Source of the DNA: an uncultured Solibacteraceae bacterium
Lineage (GTDB): Bacteria; Acidobacteriota; Terriglobia; 20CM-2-55-15
Reading direction: 5' to 3'
DNA length: 64,000 nt
Assembly: GCA_964633285.1 (NCBI GenBank)
Contig: CAZWGA010000028.1
Location: forward strand, 960 to 64,959
Shown: positions 2,875 to 62,446 of the stretch, piece by piece
Layout of the letters: every line of letters begins with the position of its first letter
Numbering within the stretch: position 1 is the first letter of the stretch
Program-made: the position numbers and the translations under genes
The notes under the pieces: generated by a model
What the model was told of the DNA's origin: nothing
Databases searched by the model: none
The model's input: only the letters and a program-made list of their open reading frames with translations

Positions 2875-5624
2875 CGCCATTCCTTCGCAAATTAGGCTGG
2901 TTGATCGGGCGGCGACGCAAAGAAGACGAACTGCAGGAAGAACTTCAGTTTCACATCGACGAGGAAGCCGAAGAGCGCCGGGCGCAGGGCTTCACGACGG
3001 AAGACGCGCATCGAGCGGGCCGCCGGGATCTCGGCAATATGGCATTGGTCCAGGAGGACACGCGCGCGAGCTGGGGCTGGACTTTTCTGGAACAATTCTT
3101 CCAGGACATCCGTTACGCGCTACGCACAATGTCGGCGAACCGGCTGTTTACATTGCTTGCCGTGGTGTCGTTCGCTTTAGCCATCGGCGCCAATACCGCG
3201 ATCTACAGCTTTATGGATGCGGTTCTCTTTCGTGTGTTGCCTGTCCATAATCCAGATTCGTTGGTACTGCTTAACTGGCAAAAGCGCGCCCCCGAGCGCC
3301 GTACCGACGGCTCTCCTTCAGATGTCGTCCATGGCATGGACGGCAACATCTTCAACGACGACGGCATACAGAACAGCGGGATCTTTCCGTATCCTGCTTT
3401 CGAGTTGCTGCGCAAGTCCGACCTCTTTTCAACGTTGTTCGCCTACACTCCGGCGCGGAATTTGAGCATTACGATTCAGAAGCATTCTGAAATGACCGAT
3501 GGAGTCTACGTTTCCGGCGACTTCTTCAACGGACTTCAGATCTCTCCGGCCGCAGGCCGGCCGATTATCCCTGACGACGATCGAGCCGGCGCTCCCGCGG
3601 TCGCGGTAATCAGTTATGCAGTGGCGCAAAGCCGTTTTGGAAATGCGTCCAATGCCGTCGGACAGTCGTTCTTCATCGATAACATTCCCTTCACCATTGT
3701 TGGCGTCGCTCCCCCGGAGTTTTTCGGCGTGGATCCCGCATGGGCTCCCAAAGTGTTTCTACCGATGCACGCCAATCTCGTTGTTCCGGACGGACCATTC
3801 CCAACAGACCCGAAGGCATACCTGGACAATAACTATTACTGGGTTGAGGTGATGGGACGCCTCCGTCCGGGAACGAGTCTTGCCGGCGCGCAGGCTGCTC
3901 TCGTGGAACCGTTCCAGCAGTGGGTCGCGACCACCGCCACTACGGATTGGGAACGGTCGGATCTGCCGAAACTCCGATTGGTCGAGGGCGCGACCGGACC
4001 GGATCCACTACGCCGCCGGTACGCGCGGCCGTTGGTTGTGCTGACGATATTGGTTGCACTGATCCTGGCCATTGCGTGCGCCAACATCGCCAATCTTTTG
4101 CTCGCCCGGGCAACGGCGCGCACGCGCGAGATCTCGCTGAGGCTCAGCCTGGGCGCCGGGCGTCTACGAGTGATCCGGCAACTGCTGACTGAAAGTGTCG
4201 TGCTCGCGTCCGTGGGTGGCATTCTCGGGATCCTTGTCGCAATCTATGGCATTCGCTTTCTCACCACATTGTTGGCGATCGATTCGATGGCCGTTCTGCC
4301 ACGCGCCGAATTGAACTGGAATGTGCTAGCGGTCGCGGTTGTCTTGTCTGTGATCACGGGACTGCTCTTTGGTCTCGCTCCGGCGCTCGGACTCATCCGC
4401 GCCGATCTCGTAGCCGGCCTCAAAGAGACCCGAGCAGGCATTCGGCCAGTGCGAAGGCGGCTCTCGTCGCTCGACGTTCTGGTCGTTTCTCAGGTTGTGC
4501 TGTCGCTCCTGATGCTGGTCGCCGCGGGTTTGTTTGTCCGGACGCTATCCAATTTGCGCTCGGTCGACGTCGGATTCAACACCCGCAACCTTTTGCTCTT
4601 CGAAATCAATGCCCGCCAGGCCGGATACAAAGGCGCGGAAATGATTTCGTTTTACGAAGACCTCAAGAGACGCTTTGCTGCCGTGCCGGGTGTTGCCGGT
4701 CTCAGCATGTCGAATCGTCCCATCATCACCGCGGGTTTTTCACTAGGCATCCGCGTGAATGGCCGGCTGATAGAGAATCGGGATACGCGGATGCTGCTGG
4801 TCGGCCCCGGTTTTTTCTCGACGCTGCAGATTCCAATCGTCATGGGCCGTGAGATCGACGAGCGCGAGAAGCCGGGTTCGCCAATGACGGCCGTAGTCAG
4901 CGAACTGTTCGCTCGATCGGCGTTCGGTGATGAAAACCCTATTGGACGGCATGTGATGGTCGGACGTGATCAACGTGAAGCCGAAATCGTCGGTGTGGCG
5001 AAAGATGCGCGGTATGGCGGACTGAAGCGGCCCTTACCGGCCGTCGTGTACGTCCCATACAATCAGAGCTCATCTACATTCGCGGATCGCATGACGTTTG
5101 AGTTGCGTACGGCGGATAATCCCCTGCTTCACGTCAATACGATCCGTGAGATTGTGCGCAGCCTGAATCCTCTCGTCCCCGTTGCAAAGATGACGACGCA
5201 GACGGCCCAGATCGAGGAGACCATCAGTCAGGAAATCATGTTTGCGCGCGTCTGCACCGCTTTTGCCATTCTCGCACTGGCCATCGCGTGCGTCGGATTG
5301 TACGGCACCGTGGCATACAACGTGGCCAGGCGAACCAGCGAGATCGGAATTCGCATGGCGCTTGGCGCCCCGCGCGCCGGCGTGATGCGCATGATCCTGC
5401 AAAAAGTCCTGGCTCTGGTACTCGTTGCCCTTGGGATTGGCTTGCCGGTCGCATTGAAGGCGTCCACGTACGTGAAAGCCTTTCTGTTTGCAATGACGCC
5501 AACGGACGCATGGACAATGGGCGCCGCGATTTTAATCCTGGTAACAGGCTCGCTGTTGGCCGCGTTCGTTCCCGCACACCGAGCCTCCCGCATCGATCCT
5601 CTGGTTGTGCTACGGCACGAGTAA
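2871..5624 (+). CDS. ADOP / MacB-FtsX-like duplicated ABC permease
   Basis: GTG start overlaps the padR stop (GTGA) with AGGAGG SD. N-terminal 'EDELQEELQFHI' segment, QDIRYALR, LAIGANTAIYS, CANIANLLLAR, REISLRLSLGAGR, EIGIRMALGA and RASRIDP motifs. Confidence 0.93.
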   Translation: MTPFLRKLGWLIGRRRKEDELQEELQFHIDEEAEERRAQGFTTEDAHRAGRRDLGNMALVQEDTRASWGWTFLEQFFQDIRYALRTMSANRLFTLLAVVSFALAIGANTAIYSFMDAVLFRVLPVHNPDSLVLLNWQKRAPERRTDGSPSDVVHGMDGNIFNDDGIQNSGIFPYPAFELLRKSDLFSTLFAYTPARNLSITIQKHSEMTDGVYVSGDFFNGLQISPAAGRPIIPDDDRAGAPAVAVISYAVAQSRFGNASNAVGQSFFIDNIPFTIVGVAPPEFFGVDPAWAPKVFLPMHANLVVPDGPFPTDPKAYLDNNYYWVEVMGRLRPGTSLAGAQAALVEPFQQWVATTATTDWERSDLPKLRLVEGATGPDPLRRRYARPLVVLTILVALILAIACANIANLLLARATARTREISLRLSLGAGRLRVIRQLLTESVVLASVGGILGILVAIYGIRFLTTLLAIDSMAVLPRAELNWNVLAVAVVLSVITGLLFGLAPALGLIRADLVAGLKETRAGIRPVRRRLSSLDVLVVSQVVLSLLMLVAAGLFVRTLSNLRSVDVGFNTRNLLLFEINARQAGYKGAEMISFYEDLKRRFAAVPGVAGLSMSNRPIITAGFSLGIRVNGRLIENRDTRMLLVGPGFFSTLQIPIVMGREIDEREKPGSPMTAVVSELFARSAFGDENPIGRHVMVGRDQREAEIVGVAKDARYGGLKRPLPAVVYVPYNQSSSTFADRMTFELRTADNPLLHVNTIREIVRSLNPLVPVAKMTTQTAQIEETISQEIMFARVCTAFAILALAIACVGLYGTVAYNVARRTSEIGIRMALGAPRAGVMRMILQKVLALVLVALGIGLPVALKASTYVKAFLFAMTPTDAWTMGAAILILVTGSLLAAFVPAHRASRIDPLVVLRHE

Positions 5625-10993: not shown

Positions 10994-11854
10994 ATGAAAC
11001 TCTGTCTGCTGGTTCTCGCATTTTGGTCACAGGAAGCCGAAAGAGCACTCCCGGACAAGGCGGCTTTCATCGCAGGGTTCCGCAAGACGCTGCATGACGA
11101 TGAGAAGCTCCTCAGTCAGTACACCTATACCGAGAAGGAAACGGAGACCACGCTCGATTCGAAAGGCCTCAAGAAAAAGACCGAGATCAATGTGTATCAG
11201 GTTATTCACGGAGCCGAAGAATGGCAGACATATCGCCGGCATATCGTGAAGAATGGGGTCGCTTTGACCGGAGCGGAGCTTCAAAAGCAGGACCGTGAGG
11301 AACAGGAGCGCGTTGCAAAGGAGACTCACAAACGGGCGAACCAGCCGGAAGCGAAGCGCCGAGAAGAGAAAGCAAAAGCAGACCGCGACGAGCAGGAAGC
11401 TCTCGACGATGTCTTTGCGATGTTCGACGTTCAACTGATTCGGCGCGAACCGATCGGTGGTACATCGACGATCCTGGCCAGCTTCAAACCGAAGGCGAGT
11501 TACAAACCGAAGACGCGTATCGGGAAGATACTCCAGCACATCACAGGCCGCATGTGGATCGCCGAAGACGACCATGAACTGGCCAGAGTCGAAGGCGAAG
11601 TCATTGACGCCATTTCAATCGGTGGCGGATTTCTGGCGAAGCTTCAGAAGGGATCCCGATTCGCTTTCGAACGCCGGAAAATCAATGGCGAGATATGGCT
11701 GCCGGTCAGGGAAGAGGCTTTCGTCGACGGCAGGCTGCTCCTGGTCAAGGGACTGAAAGAACTCGACGTCGTTGAATACTCGGACCACAAGAAATATTCC
11801 GTCGATACCATCCTCAAGTTTCCGGAAGAAGTCGCCACTCCAAAGCCAGACTGA
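10994..11854 (+). CDS. conserved secreted hypothetical protein (possible LolA/RseB-like beta-rich fold)
   Basis: Short signal-like N-terminus and 'YTYTEKE...GRMWIAEDDHELARVEG...IWLP' pattern. The fold guess is inference. Confidence 0.7.
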   Translation: MKLCLLVLAFWSQEAERALPDKAAFIAGFRKTLHDDEKLLSQYTYTEKETETTLDSKGLKKKTEINVYQVIHGAEEWQTYRRHIVKNGVALTGAELQKQDREEQERVAKETHKRANQPEAKRREEKAKADRDEQEALDDVFAMFDVQLIRREPIGGTSTILASFKPKASYKPKTRIGKILQHITGRMWIAEDDHELARVEGEVIDAISIGGGFLAKLQKGSRFAFERRKINGEIWLPVREEAFVDGRLLLVKGLKELDVVEYSDHKKYSVDTILKFPEEVATPKPD

Positions 11855-11864
11855 CCAACAATAA

Positions 11865-12194
11865 CTAGAGCACCTTCAGTTCAGGCCAGCCGAGTGCGTA
11901 CCCGAGAGCACGCTTTACTTCACGTTGCCGATTCGCCGCAACCGATCCGATCGGATTGCTGAGGACAGCTCTGGGGACAACGTGAATGTTGTCAAGATTC
12001 GCTACCGAATTCTGTCTCAGACCTTCCTTTGCGCCGAGAGCGACTTCCTGCGGGATGTTCCGGATCGTTGTGGTGATTTCGGCAATCACGATTTTGCTGA
12101 GATACGCATATCCAGCCGTGCGAGTCAGAAGCAAAACCGGACGCCTGCCGATAGGAGCCGGCATGTTTGCCCATGCGATGTCGAATTGTTTCAT
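11865..12194 (-). CDS. PemK/MazF-family toxin (109 aa)
   Basis: MKQFDIAWANMPAPIGRRPVLLLTR...EITTTIRNIPQEVAL...NLDNIHVV. The ATG overlaps the antitoxin stop (ATGA at 12191-12194). The track start at 12344 is an upstream extension. Confidence 0.88.
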   Translation of the reverse strand: MKQFDIAWANMPAPIGRRPVLLLTRTAGYAYLSKIVIAEITTTIRNIPQEVALGAKEGLRQNSVANLDNIHVVPRAVLSNPIGSVAANRQREVKRALGYALGWPELKVL

Positions 12195-31185: not shown

Positions 31186-32415
31186 TCATGCAGCGAGTTC
31201 TTCAGACGCATCAATCCTGAACCACAAAACCGCGCCAAGAAGCAAAAACGCTGCCATTGGTACAAACGGAGCGTTGTAGCTGTGGAAGTGGTCGACGAGA
31301 TATCCATAGACGACCGTCGAAATAAAAGCGCCCACCTGTGCTGATGTGTTCATCAAACCGACGACGGATCCCGCATGCTTTTGTCCGATATCCAGGCAAA
31401 CACCGAATACTCCCGCCTGCTGAAATGTAATTCCTCCGTAGACGAGCGAAAGGAGAATAACCGTGAACAACTGCTGCTGGGTAACCATGGCCGCGATCGT
31501 GAAAAGGCACGCGCTGCCGAGGCCAAAAATGCCGAGCAGGCGCCTTCCCCATTTCAAACCGAGCCTGCGGACCAGCGCGTCGCTGGCCGCTCCGCCTGTC
31601 AGATTGGCGCATGCGGCGACGGCGTACGGCAATGCGGAAAGAATCAAACTCCCTTCGCTGAAACCCCGGCCCCTTACAAGAAAGGTATGAAACCACGTCT
31701 GAAAAAAAGTGTACACGTAGACATAACAAAAGGCGGTGGTGAGCATGGCCAGCATGCTTCCCGAACGCAATGCCTGCCGCCAGGGGAAACCTTTCAAGTG
31801 CACCGCGTGTGCGGGAACCGTTTCGTTCAGCTCAGCCGATGTTATTCCTCGCTTCTCGGAAGGATTGTCGCGAAACCAGACGTACCAGACGGCCGCCCAG
31901 ACCAGTCCGAGAGCGCCGAAAATGTAGAACGATGCGCGCCACCCGTAACGCATCTGGATCGGCACAACAAGCAGCGGCGCTATCGCTCCGCCGATCTGAC
32001 TTGCCATCAGCAGGACACCGGAGACGCCCGCGCGCTGCGTCGCCGGGAACCAGCGCGCCATAACGATCGAAGCATTTGGAAATGCGCCGGCTTCTCCAGC
32101 GCCGAAGCAGAACCTTGTGATCAGAAGAATGCGGTAATTCCAGACCATTCCGGTCAGCGACGTGAATGCGGACCACCACAGCACCACGCGCGTCAGCACG
32201 CGCCGAGCGCCAATTCGATCCCCCAACACGCCGGTAGGAATTTCAAAGAGGCAGTAGGACAACGTGAACATCGCCGTCACCCAGCTCCATCCAACCGGAT
32301 CGATGTGCAGATCATCCTGTATTCGCGGCCCCGCCACGGAAATGCAGACGCGGTCGAGATACATGATCGCGAACAGCAGAATGAGAAGTCCAAGAACGCG
32401 ATGACGATATTTCAT
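31186..32415 (-). CDS. MFS transporter (anion:cation symporter-like)
   Basis: MKYRHRVLG, YLDRVCISVA, GDRIGARR, GAGEAGAFP, RWFP and GSVVGLMNT motifs. About 12 hydrophobic segments. Confidence 0.92.
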   Translation of the reverse strand: MKYRHRVLGLLILLFAIMYLDRVCISVAGPRIQDDLHIDPVGWSWVTAMFTLSYCLFEIPTGVLGDRIGARRVLTRVVLWWSAFTSLTGMVWNYRILLITRFCFGAGEAGAFPNASIVMARWFPATQRAGVSGVLLMASQIGGAIAPLLVVPIQMRYGWRASFYIFGALGLVWAAVWYVWFRDNPSEKRGITSAELNETVPAHAVHLKGFPWRQALRSGSMLAMLTTAFCYVYVYTFFQTWFHTFLVRGRGFSEGSLILSALPYAVAACANLTGGAASDALVRRLGLKWGRRLLGIFGLGSACLFTIAAMVTQQQLFTVILLSLVYGGITFQQAGVFGVCLDIGQKHAGSVVGLMNTSAQVGAFISTVVYGYLVDHFHSYNAPFVPMAAFLLLGAVLWFRIDASEELAA

Positions 32416-44424: not shown

Positions 44425-45894
44425 ATGCATGTCCTCATGGTTGCGGGCGAATGTGTGCCGTTCGCCAAAGTGGGCGGTCTGGCGGATGTTCTGGGCGCGC
44501 TCCCACCGGCTCTCGAAAAACTTGGCGTATCGGTGACGATTGTCATACCGCGGCATCGTGTCATCGATCTTGAGAAATTCGGTTTCGTCCCTTACGCGGT
44601 ACCCGACAGCATTCGCGTCCCGCTCGGATGGGAAAGCCTCGCATTCGATGTGCATCGCGGCAAGCTGCCCGGTACTTCTGTCGACGTCTTTCTGATCGGC
44701 AACGACAGGTTCTTCGATCGCGACGGCATCTATAGCGATCCCGAGACCGGCCGGGATTATCCCGATCAGGTGGACCGCTGGATTTTTTTTCAGCGCGCGG
44801 TCATGGAGTTCTTCAAGACCATTACACCTCACGCCGACATTCTGCATTGCCACGATCATCAAACGGCGCTGATGCCCGCATATCTGCAGCGCATCTACCG
44901 CGCCGATCCGGCTTTTTCCCGCACGCGCTCCGTCTTCACGATCCATAACATGGGCTATCAGGGACTCTTTCCTTCGGCGGTGATGCCGCGCGCCGGATTC
45001 AGCGACGCGGAGTTTTATCCCACCAGTCCGTTCGAATTCTACGGAGCCATGAACTTCATGAAGATCGGGATCACCTATGCGGATCTCATCACCACCGTGA
45101 GCCCGGCCTACGCCCGCGAAATTCAGGAGAGCAGGGAATTCGGCTACGGCCTCGAGGGCGTTCTAAAAGATCGATCGAGCGCGCTGACGGGAATTCTCAA
45201 CGGCATCGATGATCAGGTATGGAACCCGGAGACCGATCCGTTCATTGCTGCAACCTACGGCAGCACGGATTTGTCCGGCAAGCTTCTCAACAAAAAAGCG
45301 CTGATGAAGAAATATGCCCTGGACGACTCGCATCCCGAGTGGCCTGTGCTCGCGATGATTTCGCGCATCGATGTTCAGAAGGGCTTCGATCTCGTCATCA
45401 GCATCCTCGATTACCTCCTGGCGAAGGATCTCTATTTTGCATTGCTCGGCAGGGGCAACAAGGAGACCGAGAAATATCTGCAAACCATCATCGATCGTCA
45501 TCCTGGGAAGGGCGGCATGCGCTTTGAGTTCGATAATGGAGCGGCGCACCTGACTGAAGCCGGCGCCGACATTTTCCTGATGCCCTCGAAATACGAGCCC
45601 TGCGGCTTGAATCAAATGTACAGCCAGCGTTATGGAACAGTTCCGGTCGCGCGAAAAACGGGCGGTCTGGCGGATACGATCCAGGAATTTGATCCGGCGA
45701 GCGGAGAGGGAACAGGTTTCCTTTTTTCGGAGTACGATCCGGAGCATTTCAAGGCGGCTGTCGAGCGCGCATTGGCTCTCTGGCCGGATCGCTCCGCCTG
45801 GCAACGGCTGACGATCAACGGCATGAACCAGGACTGGAGTTGGCAGTCGTCCGCAAAAAAGTATGTCGAGGCCTACGAACGAGTGATGCGCTGA
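44425..45894 (+). CDS. glgA: glycogen synthase (ADP-glucose type)
   Basis: KVGGLADV, HCHDHQT, TIHNMGYQG, TTVSPAYA, GILNGID, ISRIDVQKG, PSKYEPCGLNQ and GGLADT motifs. Confidence 0.96.
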   Translation: MHVLMVAGECVPFAKVGGLADVLGALPPALEKLGVSVTIVIPRHRVIDLEKFGFVPYAVPDSIRVPLGWESLAFDVHRGKLPGTSVDVFLIGNDRFFDRDGIYSDPETGRDYPDQVDRWIFFQRAVMEFFKTITPHADILHCHDHQTALMPAYLQRIYRADPAFSRTRSVFTIHNMGYQGLFPSAVMPRAGFSDAEFYPTSPFEFYGAMNFMKIGITYADLITTVSPAYAREIQESREFGYGLEGVLKDRSSALTGILNGIDDQVWNPETDPFIAATYGSTDLSGKLLNKKALMKKYALDDSHPEWPVLAMISRIDVQKGFDLVISILDYLLAKDLYFALLGRGNKETEKYLQTIIDRHPGKGGMRFEFDNGAAHLTEAGADIFLMPSKYEPCGLNQMYSQRYGTVPVARKTGGLADTIQEFDPASGEGTGFLFSEYDPEHFKAAVERALALWPDRSAWQRLTINGMNQDWSWQSSAKKYVEAYERVMR

Positions 45895-45959
45895 CACTGT
45901 CCCCACTTTTTTGAATTCACTTTTCTGATTTCGGAATTTTTCAGCTCTCTGCGAATCCC

Positions 45960-46005
45960 TAACTCATTGAATCCCTGATGAGAGGTTCGTGGCCTTGATA
46001 TTGCA
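45960..46005 (+). promoter_or_regulatory. sigma54 promoter TGGCCT-N5-TTGCA (45990-46005) with IHF-like site TAACTCATTGAAT (45960-45972)
   Basis: GG (45991-92) and GC (46003-04) are separated by exactly 10 nt. The IHF consensus YAANNNNTTGATW is matched with one mismatch, about 50 nt upstream of the predicted start site. Confidence 0.7.
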
Positions 46006-46015
46006 TATAGAGGAA

Positions 46016-46162
46016 GCGTGTTCCTAAGGTTTCCGGAACCTGGTATTCGATGAAGTCTCGTTCTCACAGGGGGTGAGGGGAGAGAAAGAATCGCCAGGTT
46101 CCGGAAAACAAATTTCCGGCCGCGAATTATGGCAATGCATCAGCGTAGTTCGCGGCTTTTTT
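46016..46162 (+). ncRNA. candidate sigma54-dependent small RNA (~145 nt)
   Basis: Bounded by the sigma54 promoter and a terminator. It has a perfect 14-bp helix (46030-46043 / 46094-46107) enclosing nested stems, and no credible ORF. Confidence 0.55.
46119..46162 (+). terminator. Rho-independent terminator
   Basis: GCCGCGAATTATG / CGTAGTTCGCGGC stem followed by TTTTTTATTT. Confidence 0.8.
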
Positions 46163-46173
46163 ATTTACTTGAT

Positions 46174-46524
46174 CTACTTGATAGCTACGGAAATCTGACG
46201 GACGCGGCTTGTAATGATCAACCGCTTGTCGAAGTGGATTTCGAGATTGAACCCCGCGTAGATGCCGCGAAGTTTCAGGAAGCTGCCGCCAAGAGAACTA
46301 CCGGCGAGACGGGCTTCCGTGAATTCCGGAAAGAATCGGCCTCCCCGAATCAGAATGTCGCCGGATCTGCCGCAGATAACGGTGATTTCGTACACGCTGT
46401 TTTCGGTGCGGACAGTCAGGGACTCCATATCCGGCAGCGTTTCGAGCTGCACGCCTTCTTTCCAGTTGTGTGACGACCACGTATCGAGGAGGGCGCCTGC
46501 GGAACAACTCACCGTTGTGTCCAT
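46174..46524 (-). CDS. conserved hypothetical protein (116 aa)
   Basis: Protein-like sequence 'VRTENSVYEI...IRGGRFFP...RLAGSSLGGSFLK'. ATG lies 7 nt after TGGTACAAG (extended -10). Confidence 0.75.
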   Translation of the reverse strand: MDTTVSCSAGALLDTWSSHNWKEGVQLETLPDMESLTVRTENSVYEITVICGRSGDILIRGGRFFPEFTEARLAGSSLGGSFLKLRGIYAGFNLEIHFDKRLIITSRVRQISVAIK

Positions 46525-46589: not shown

Positions 46590-48233
46590 TTAAACTCTCT
46601 CTACAATCATGATCGTAATATCGTCCGGCAATGCGCGGCCCATAGTGAAAGTCTGAATTGTGTCCAGAAGTTTTTGCTTGAGATTCTGCGATCCTGCCGG
46701 CGCTTCAGCCCGCATGACTTTCTTGACGCGCTCCTCGCCGAGCATTTCGCCCTGCGGATTCTCCGCTTCCGTCAAGCCGTCGGAATAAGCAAGAACCACA
46801 TCCCCTTTGTTCAATTGCAGCGTCGCCGATTCATATGCGGCAAATGTAAAGGCTCCGACGATCATGTTGTTGGACTGGATTTCGTCGATATCTCCAGTCG
46901 CTGCCCGAAACACGTAAGTCGGATTATGGCCGGCGCTGATGTAGTTGCCCAGGCCTTCTGAATTCAACGTAAACAGAAACATTGTGACAAAACGGCTGGC
47001 CGACGACTTCTCGCAGAGAAATTTGTTGAGCCGGTTGATCGCGTCGTGAACCGACAGACCGGCGCGCAATTGCATTTGAAGACAGCCGAGCAGCATCGAA
47101 CTGAGCAGCGAAGCCGAAATTCCTTTGCCCGACACATCCGCGAGCACGCCATAGAGATCTCCCGAGTCCAGTTCGGCAAAATCGTAGAAGTCGCCGCCAA
47201 CGTATCGTGTAGGTTTCGAGAATGCCTCGATGCTGAGGTTCTTCACTTGCGGCAATGTCTGCGGCAGCAAGCTGCGTTGAGTTTCTTCAGCGAGAGTCAG
47301 TTCCTGCTCGAGCTTCTTGCGTTGTTCGATGCTCTTGATCATCTCGACGCGCTCGAGAACGTTTCCGGCTTCGACCGCAAGTTTGCTCAGGATCTTCTGA
47401 TCCAAACCCGATAACGAATGCATTTGCTGTTTGCTGTCGAGATACAAAATTCCCAGGATCGACGGCGAATCCGACTGGAATGGGATTCCCATCAACGGAA
47501 GACAGGCAATCGCGCGCAGATTCATGGCCACGATGCTGGCCTGTTCCTTGTATTTGTTGTCGAGGCCTTCGACCATGAATACAGCAGAGCCCTTCTTGAC
47601 AACATCGTTCACAACGGACTGGCTCGTCTTGAAGCTCGACTGCGTTAACGTGCGTCCACGGCCGTCCAAGCCCGCGGCGTATCCGTAACCTTCGCCTTCG
47701 CGCACCAGAATGAAACCGCGTTCGGCGCCGCTGATCTTCAGAGCGGATTCAAGCGTCCTCTGAAACGCCGCATCGGGCGTGAACATTCGCTCCCATTGAT
47801 ATTGGAAATCGAGGATGCATGAGATTTTTTCAAGGTCCGAATATCCGGACGGCAGCACTACGCCCAGATCGATGAGCGATTTTTCGAAGATAGCGGTCGT
47901 GTTGGAACTTGCGCTCTTTGACGGTTTGGCATCGCCGATGAGGTAATGGAGATCGATGCGATCCTTGCCGAGCGAAATCCTGTCTCCGTGTTTGAGCGTG
48001 TATTGCTCGACGCGATTCTCGTTAACGAAAGTGCCGTGCGTGCTTCCGAGATCCTGAACCGAATAGCCATCCGGCATCTTCACCAGTTTTGCATGATGAC
48101 GCGAAATGTGCTGATTGTTGAGCACAACGTCCGCGTCGCCTTTGCGTCCGATCAGGACTTCCGTCGCGACGAGCGGCAACACATTCTCCTGTCCATCAGG
48201 GCCGAGCCAATACAGTTGGGGAGTTGACGACAT
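46590..48233 (-). CDS. FHA-GAF-PP2C (SpoIIE/RsbU-type) phosphatase
   Basis: FHA motifs IGR...ISRHHA...DLGSTHGTFVN. Central GAF domain. PP2C motifs GGDFYDF, ADVSGKG, SAGH, YSDGLTE and DDITI. Confidence 0.93.
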   Translation of the reverse strand: MSSTPQLYWLGPDGQENVLPLVATEVLIGRKGDADVVLNNQHISRHHAKLVKMPDGYSVQDLGSTHGTFVNENRVEQYTLKHGDRISLGKDRIDLHYLIGDAKPSKSASSNTTAIFEKSLIDLGVVLPSGYSDLEKISCILDFQYQWERMFTPDAAFQRTLESALKISGAERGFILVREGEGYGYAAGLDGRGRTLTQSSFKTSQSVVNDVVKKGSAVFMVEGLDNKYKEQASIVAMNLRAIACLPLMGIPFQSDSPSILGILYLDSKQQMHSLSGLDQKILSKLAVEAGNVLERVEMIKSIEQRKKLEQELTLAEETQRSLLPQTLPQVKNLSIEAFSKPTRYVGGDFYDFAELDSGDLYGVLADVSGKGISASLLSSMLLGCLQMQLRAGLSVHDAINRLNKFLCEKSSASRFVTMFLFTLNSEGLGNYISAGHNPTYVFRAATGDIDEIQSNNMIVGAFTFAAYESATLQLNKGDVVLAYSDGLTEAENPQGEMLGEERVKKVMRAEAPAGSQNLKQKLLDTIQTFTMGRALPDDITIMIVERV

Positions 48234-62374: not shown

Positions 62375-62446
62375 GCGGGACTAACTCAGTGGTAGAGTGC
62401 GACCTTGCCAAGGTCGAAGTCGCGGGTTCGAATCCCGTGTCCCGCT
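62375..62446 (+). tRNA. tRNA-Gly(GCC); CCA not encoded
   Basis: Cloverleaf: acceptor GCGGGAC/GTCCCGC, D arm ACTC/GAGT, anticodon stem CGACC/GGTCG with GCC at 62407-09, T arm GCGGG-TTCGAAT-CCCGT, discriminator U. TATAAT at 62356-62361. Confidence 0.97.

Follow-up and report, generated by a model that had tools for sequence, protein, structure and literature searches.

Qrr1-5 of Vibrio (activated by LuxO), CrcZ and CrcY of Pseudomonas (CbrB) and NrsZ of Pseudomonas (NtrC) are sigma-54-dependent small RNAs. They are enhancer-dependent and tie a two-component or nutrient signal to post-transcriptional control, and the Qrr RNAs have a long invariant block. The GlmY and GlmZ promoters of the Enterobacteriaceae carry three GlrR sites (TGTCN10GACA). 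At these promoters sigma-54, the GlrR sites and the sites for integration host factor (IHF) have been shown to be required, and the architecture was first recognised through conserved motifs in promoter alignments (PMC3045617). In the Acidobacteria, Acido-1 (RF01686) and Acido-Lenti-1 (RF01687) are described non-coding RNA motifs (PMC2864571). Literature searches found no characterised small RNA for the class Terriglobia. Here we analyse a 64,000-nucleotide (nt) stretch of DNA, hereafter the window, from an uncultured Solibacteraceae bacterium (GCA_964633285.1, contig CAZWGA010000028.1, positions 960-64,959 of the forward strand). An initial annotation had placed a candidate small RNA in the gap between glgA and the next gene, and the flanking genes, the next one convergent, are as it described; the gap measures 279 nt. 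The element is probably an independent sigma-54-dependent small RNA gene, neither a leader nor a switch, and is best read as belonging to a new sigma-54-dependent, trans-acting small RNA family of the Terriglobia, genetically linked to glgA. The small RNA is conserved in dozens of uncultured soil Acidobacteria of this class, with its promoter architecture, strand, structure, single-copy status and linkage to glgA.

Like GlmY and GlmZ, the predicted RNA stands alone, is structured and ends in an intrinsic terminator (the enterobacterial RNAs are about 150-200 nt long), and its putative sigma-54 promoter would need an upstream-bound enhancer-binding protein and IHF, a layout known here from conserved motifs. 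Unlike them, it has one palindromic site near -85 and no overlapping sigma-70 promoter, and it belongs to another phylum and to a glgA context; it resembles GlmY and GlmZ in neither sequence nor structure and has no Rfam match to them. The sequences, structures and taxa of Qrr, CrcZ/CrcY and NrsZ are likewise unrelated to those of the new RNA, and Qrr and CrcZ work via Hfq or Crc with known motifs (A-rich CA motifs in CrcZ) that are absent in it. Acido-1 and Acido-Lenti-1 are, like the new RNA, candidate small RNAs of the same phylum from comparative genomics, but neither model matches it even at E up to 10, and size and fold differ.

Conservation and promoter architecture

When representative genomes were scanned with GlgA, a single near locus came up, L001 (a Solibacteraceae metagenome-assembled genome, 67% identity), together with distant glgA loci from other phyla. 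A protein search returned many GlgA homologues at 66-75% identity, named by their source as Terriglobia or Acidobacteria, and the contigs of these homologues share the order proC, glgA, the gap, a gene for a 116-amino-acid (aa) protein and an FHA/GAF/PP2C gene, the last two on the reverse strand. The small RNA element is present in ten of 11 distinct glgA-syntenic loci that were collected independently of the element's own sequence, including loci with an altered downstream gene. The lone exception, L109, encodes an identical GlgA protein followed by rearranged downstream DNA without the RNA, which suggests that the DNA was rearranged locally or that the assembly is chimeric.

A metagenome scan with a 20-nt DNA pattern from the apical hairpin of the RNA yielded 82 loci, 81 of which were upheld by a covariance model built here; the other (L034) is a chance match within a coding region and was excluded. 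The family thus comprises about 90 related loci, ten distinct ones found through glgA synteny and 81 through the metagenome pattern. The covariance model gives a clean annotation, as family members score 77-155 bits and the distant glgA loci from other phyla (L002-L013) have no match. Viral contigs, which were also scanned, contain no match to the RNA. There is one copy per related locus and exactly one in the window (46015-46163, + strand, 136 bits); the - strand reaches 23 bits, from the palindromic terminator alone.

Promoter motifs were counted in those 71 distinct loci whose upstream sequence is 145 nt or longer. The sigma-54 -24/-12 element TGGCCTTGATATTGCA (TGGC-N7-TTGCA, that is GG-N10-GC, the canonical sigma-54 spacing) lies at 45990-46005 on the + strand. 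GG-N10-GC occurs in the same register in all 71 loci and the full TGG-N8-TTGCW in 67. Within the window the motif by itself is not beyond chance (two matches against 1.01 expected, and at least two in 29 of 100 shuffles); it is significant because it is conserved in related loci, and for no other reason. The second TGGC-N7-TTGCW (31241-31256, - strand) falls within the 3' end of a coding region, is followed by no RNA-like structure and is a chance match, as 1.01 are expected per window.

Between the -24/-12 element and a palindrome further upstream, centred at about -50, is the IHF-consensus site TAACTCATTGAAT (45960-45972), which reads ATTCAATGAGTTA on the - strand, one mismatch from the consensus WATCAANNNNTTR. 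The reverse complement of that consensus, YAANNNNTTGATW, occurs exactly in 54 loci and in near-exact form in 13 more (67 of 71) and always starts 28-30 nt upstream of the -24 TGG. Both the sigma-54 promoter and the IHF-type site had been proposed in the initial annotation, and both hold across the related loci. It overlooked the conserved palindrome, a candidate upstream activator site of 14 bp, TTCTGATTTCGGAA, at 45923-45936 (+ strand; family consensus cTTCnGAtTTCnGAAg), centred at about -84 to -86. This palindrome, TTCnGAnnTCnGAA, is found in 65 of the 71 loci (33 with the exact TTCNGANNTCNGAA and 32 near), starts 63-67 nt upstream of the -24 TGG and occurs once in the window; in most members it begins about 10 nt past the glgA stop codon. 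It is likely to be the binding site of a dimeric sigma-54 activator, that is, a bacterial enhancer-binding protein; sites of this kind lie about 80-150 nt upstream. According to the information profile, the spacer sequence between the palindrome, the IHF site and the -24/-12 element is not conserved. No sigma-70-like promoter was found in the intergenic region. As a motif arrangement, palindrome, putative IHF site and -24/-12 element follow the textbook layout of an enhancer-dependent promoter. Sigma-54 promoters start transcription about 12 nt beyond the C of their -12 GC, which predicts a start at about 46015-46017.

A sigma-54 activator (PF00158, E 2e-71) is encoded on the contig of the family member L084, so the lineage uses sigma-54. 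This activator (10994-11962, - strand, 322 aa) consists of an AAA+ domain with GAFTGA and a lid domain and has no recognised N-terminal receiver domain. It lies about 10-11 kb from the RNA and is not conserved near the RNA elsewhere.

Structure of the predicted RNA

The predicted transcript of about 147 nt spans 46016-46162. It begins with a single-stranded, pyrimidine-rich leader of 14 nt, GCGUGUUCCUAAGG (46016-46029, + strand), in which the motif GUGUUCCUAAG is kept in the largest subgroup and replaced elsewhere by other U/C-rich leaders. A long helix follows on the + strand, with its 5' arm at 46030-46044 (P1) and 46045-46048 (P1b) and its 3' arm at 46088-46091 (P1b) and 46093-46107 (P1), as given by RNAfold and by covariation. 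It includes the perfect 14-bp inverted repeat TTTCCGGAACCTGG (46030-46043) and CCAGGTTCCGGAAA (46094-46107), and the inner stems UCUC/GAGA and UUCUCAC/GUGAGGG are present. An internal loop separates P1/P1b from the near-invariant apical module of 31 nt, GUCUCGUUCUCACAGGGGGUGAGGGGAGAGA (46055-46085, + strand), the whole forming an irregular hairpin of about 30 bp. In the apical module, P2 (46056-59 with 46080-83) is followed by a bulged G (46060) and by P3 (46061-67 with 46073-79), which holds two conserved U-G pairs and closes on the apical loop AGGGG (46068-72).

The single-stranded linker ACAAAUUUCCG (46108-46118, + strand) is A/U-rich, a property that is kept family-wide while the linker sequence itself is not conserved. 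The intrinsic terminator (46119-46162, + strand) has a GC-rich stem of 13 bp (46119-31 with 46144-56), a loop at 46132-43 and U6 at 46157-62. A simple terminator scan missed it, with a loop of 12 nt against a scan maximum of 8; the terminator is backed by RNAfold and covariation alike. All elements that the initial annotation listed are present where it placed them, including TTTCCGG at 46113-46119 and the U6 that ends at 46162.

The 12-nt terminator loop GCAAUGCAUCAG, with its self-complementary AUGCAU, is kept in most members. One subgroup (including L022, L044, L049, L055 and L071) swaps the whole terminator for a short CCCGCGGG hairpin, so the loop is dispensable, and a few other members bear other short terminators. 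Read on the - strand, the A-rich linker is a U-rich stretch after the hairpin, and the terminator hairpin ends 12 nt away from the convergent gene's stop codon; because of this linker, the terminator may be bidirectional and also end transcripts of the convergent gene. The covariance model matches terminators on the reverse strand too.

For the + strand of 46010-46165 the fold energy is -69.5 kcal/mol (z = -6.2), a stability that no sequence among 200 dinucleotide shuffles attains; the - strand reaches only -54.5 kcal/mol. Read from the opposite strand, many of the conserved G-U pairs would turn into A-C mismatches. Based on these pairs, the energy gap between the strands and the U tract, we conclude that the RNA is on the + strand.

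Covariation was evaluated on a model-based alignment of 62 distinct members and, since such an alignment leans towards its model, recounted on a structure-blind MAFFT alignment. In the model-based alignment the paired cells make up 95.9%, and sliding the partners by 1-3 columns lowers this share to 40-56%; double-sided changes occur in 25 of 42 pairs, and none of 500 shuffles reaches any of the five measures. Based on the MAFFT alignment, 93.8% are paired (45-54% in the slid controls) and 17 pairs have double-sided changes, again reached by none of 500 shuffles. RNAalifold on the raw MAFFT alignment recovered the long helix in part, owing to indels; the structure was then supplied by hand and checked on both alignments. 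The covariation check on the long helix that had been suggested with the initial annotation gave compensatory changes in 13 of 18 P1/P1b pairs in the model-based alignment, and in 12 of 18 in the structure-blind one. The terminator has compensatory changes in 12 of 13 pairs and 99.9% of its cells paired. The small RNA proposal had depended on conservation of the -24/-12 motif and of this helix in related genomes, and such conservation is what we found.

The apical 11-bp stem is invariant and shows no covariation; as it never varies, it says nothing on pairing. The apical module is identical in eight of the ten synteny-derived loci, with one extra G in L001 and a 2-nt deletion plus one substitution in L015. 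In an alignment of 57 sequences, nine positions beyond the search pattern are 90-100% conserved.

Genomic setting

The gene glgA (44425-45894, + strand) encodes a starch/glycogen synthase (Pfam PF08323, E 8e-76). In nearly all loci it shares the strand of the RNA and ends 112-185 nt before the RNA core. No terminator was found between the glgA stop codon and the RNA, and for this reason glgA transcripts probably share the terminator of the small RNA. Small RNAs of the MicL and DapZ type lie after or within the 3' end of a gene and have their own promoter, and by analogy the new gene resembles such a 3'-UTR-embedded small RNA (UTR, untranslated region): it sits directly behind a coding gene of the same strand and would have a terminator in common with it. 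It differs in that its predicted promoter is wholly intergenic, not inside the upstream coding sequence, and would be sigma-54 dependent. The usual downstream neighbour is the convergent gene for the 116-aa protein (46174-46524, - strand), and more than 60 loci have a convergent gene next. A same-strand PIG-L-family gene follows within about 100-200 nt in L038, L088 and L110, and other genes follow in L001, L104 and L106. The RNA stays by glgA though the downstream gene changes and so does not serve the convergent gene as a leader, as the initial annotation had held. Together with the covariation of helix and terminator, this bears out its view of a small RNA gene that stands alone on the + strand.

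Insertions of about 1.1-1.3 kb with small unannotated open reading frames (ORFs) part glgA from the RNA in L044 and L108 (3976-5212 in L108), which, as in L109, points to local rearrangement or assembly chimera. The promoter blocks travel with the RNA in L044. In L033 a full-length member (1617-1752, - strand, 108 bits) retains the palindrome and the -24/-12 motif; glgA is absent from the 960 nt upstream of it, and the genes that usually follow are missing. To judge from these loci, RNA and promoter behave as an autonomous unit whose ancestral place would be behind glgA.

The FHA-GAF-SpoIIE/PP2C phosphatase gene (46590-48233, - strand) is also convergent to the small RNA and is almost always paired with the gene for the 116-aa protein; the pair is 63-88% identical in most related loci. 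No credible Pfam domain was found in the 116-aa protein at E up to 10 (best E 0.067), and it might be a partner or substrate of the phosphatase.

At the gathering score, no family of Rfam 15 matches the RNA (GlmY, GlmZ, Qrr, Acido-1, Acido-Lenti-1 and riboswitches included), in line with the absence of a known family from the initial annotation. At E up to 10 there were two chance-level matches of 12-14 bits, and the best overlapping match for five other members was anti-hemB with 25 bits against a threshold of 49.5. Literature searches returned no description of the RNA. The sole gathering-score match in the whole window is a tRNA gene (62375-62446, + strand, 68 bits). The contig of L055 has two divergent copies of Acido-Lenti-1 (5182-5227, - strand, and 5314-5359, + strand), scoring 53 and 48 bits against a threshold of 37. 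They lie about 6.5 kb away from the new RNA and confirm the acidobacterial origin of the lineage. Their detection indicates that the Rfam scan works for the lineage.

Mode of action, alternatives and significance

In the proposed mechanism, an RNA polymerase holoenzyme carrying sigma-54 would sit on the -24/-12 element and be activated by a dimer of an enhancer-binding protein on the palindrome near -85, with an IHF-type bend at about -50 bringing activator and holoenzyme together. Transcription would then run from about 46016 to the intrinsic terminator and yield an RNA that may act in trans, with the invariant apical stem-loop as its putative effector. Given glgA, it is plausible that the activator senses a nutrient or carbon-storage signal. 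Within this scheme we put base pairing with several mRNAs at slightly less than an even chance, and binding of a conserved protein or of the ribosome at a lower but still substantial one. In the base-pairing case, the stem with its U-G pairs and bulge would open and either strand could pair. The U-tailed terminator and the A/U-rich linker before it (ACAAAUUU, then the terminator hairpin and U6) fit the usual Hfq-binding module. An accessible seed was sought; the invariant block is mostly paired, and the 5' leader, which contains UUCCU, complementary to AGGAA, is conserved within subgroups only.

Several observations weigh against the reading as an independent, trans-acting sigma-54-dependent RNA. 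Read-through from glgA could add to the RNA or even supply most of it. When the RNA was paired in silico with the translation-initiation regions of proC, glgA, the 116-aa gene, PP2C and PIG-L, the duplexes were no better than those with shuffled sequences (mean z between -0.8 and +0.4 for the five genes). A signature-motif search of the 64-kb window found no rpoN, ihfA/B (IHF/HU) or hfq, and no sigma-54 activator (GAFTGA) or CsrA motif. No second pair of activator site and promoter occurs in 733 kb of related loci, where the search turned up only the reverse-strand reading of the known palindrome. Finally, the 81 metagenome loci were fished by the apical pattern, so that the invariance of those 20-22 nt is there by construction, and independent evidence of invariance is limited to the ten synteny-derived loci and the flanking positions.

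The alternative that survives best, which we consider possible but doubtful, keeps the sigma-54-driven RNA and replaces mRNA pairing with sequestration of a protein or ribosome by the invariant hairpin, as a decoy of the GlmY or CsrB type. Both strands of the 11-bp stem, its two U-G pairs, the bulge and the loop are invariant without covariation, a pattern seen more often in hairpins recognised by proteins than in single-stranded seeds; however, long invariant blocks are also seen in multi-target base-pairing RNAs such as Qrr. We also count in its favour that AGGGGGUGA in the invariant hairpin is what we take to be a near-complete Shine-Dalgarno sequence, one position off the full AGGAGGUGA, and that no mRNA target was found among the five neighbouring genes. 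Yet there is one hairpin only, compared with the repeated motifs of known sponges, and the adjacent 116-aa protein is without a recognisable domain. A CsrA sponge of the CsrB/RsmZ type is unlikely and was rejected, as AGGGG is the only conserved loop and the GGA triplets form part of the terminator stem and of the long helix (P1, P1b). It is also conceivable, though improbable, that the 31-nt apical hairpin is a dedicated ligand of an RNA-binding regulator or of the 30S subunit, and that a sigma-54-activated decoy would in this way link glycogen storage in Terriglobia to a nutrient signal; the idea follows from AGGGGGUGA being one base off a perfect Shine-Dalgarno sequence and held in a metastable stem with U-G pairs.

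Quite unlikely is an origin of the element as the 3' UTR and terminator region of glgA, possibly as a stable processed fragment, with read-through from proC-glgA as the main source and little contribution from the sigma-54-like motif. The same-strand position behind glgA in nearly all loci, the missing terminator after the glgA stop and the closeness of the palindrome to that stop all agree with a 3' UTR, but a three-part promoter at fixed spacing in about 70 distinct loci would be unexplained if it were idle, and the promoter is kept despite the insertion that parts it from glgA (L044) and without glgA (L033).

A cis-acting switch, that is, a riboswitch or attenuator with exclusive folds or the leader of a downstream + strand gene, is very unlikely. 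The initial annotation had seen mutually exclusive folds here, and this part of it fails. The 7-bp pairing of CCGGAAA (46101-07) with UUUCCGG (46113-19) is physically possible in the window (-7.8 kcal/mol alone), but complementarity of at least 6 nt between linker and 3' arm exists in one of 62 distinct members, the window itself. There the alternative lies 12 kcal/mol above the minimum-energy fold and has a pair probability of about 9e-5. As 12 of the 14 terminator pairs are still formed in it, the alternative fold could have no control over termination. A second alternative helix, between (G)CCGUG at the 5' end and CACGG of the long helix, was rejected, with 59% of cells paired and no covariation beyond shuffles. 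The same-strand PIG-L-family genes of the three loci named above would suit a leader; the next gene is, however, convergent in most loci, and no Rfam riboswitch matches. Least likely of all, the element would be a feature of the DNA itself (a palindrome that binds a protein or a repeat of the REP, repetitive extragenic palindromic, or MITE, miniature inverted-repeat transposable element, type) or a tiny peptide gene: the perfect 14-bp inverted repeat, the palindromic TTCCGGAA and an ORF of 7-8 codons (MKSRSHRG/MSRSHRG) overlapping the invariant block could suggest one, but the element is single copy in the window, one per related locus and absent from viral contigs, its conserved G-U pairs denote strand-specific structure, the ORF has its ATG in just 33 of 72 loci, and the 1-2 nt indels frequent in the family count against coding. 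The initial annotation had rightly treated the ORFs as trivial.

Terriglobia (Acidobacteriota) are among the most abundant soil bacteria. A new family of sigma-54-dependent bacterial small RNA, in a phylum for which no characterised example was found, is well supported computationally. A decoy circuit, if true, would have no described counterpart in the phylum. The locus is a complete and unusually legible regulatory unit, made up of activator site, IHF site, -24/-12 element, structured RNA and terminator, and it is kept across genomes in which GlgA is just 66-75% identical. The unit also suggests a link between enhancer-dependent signalling and carbon storage.

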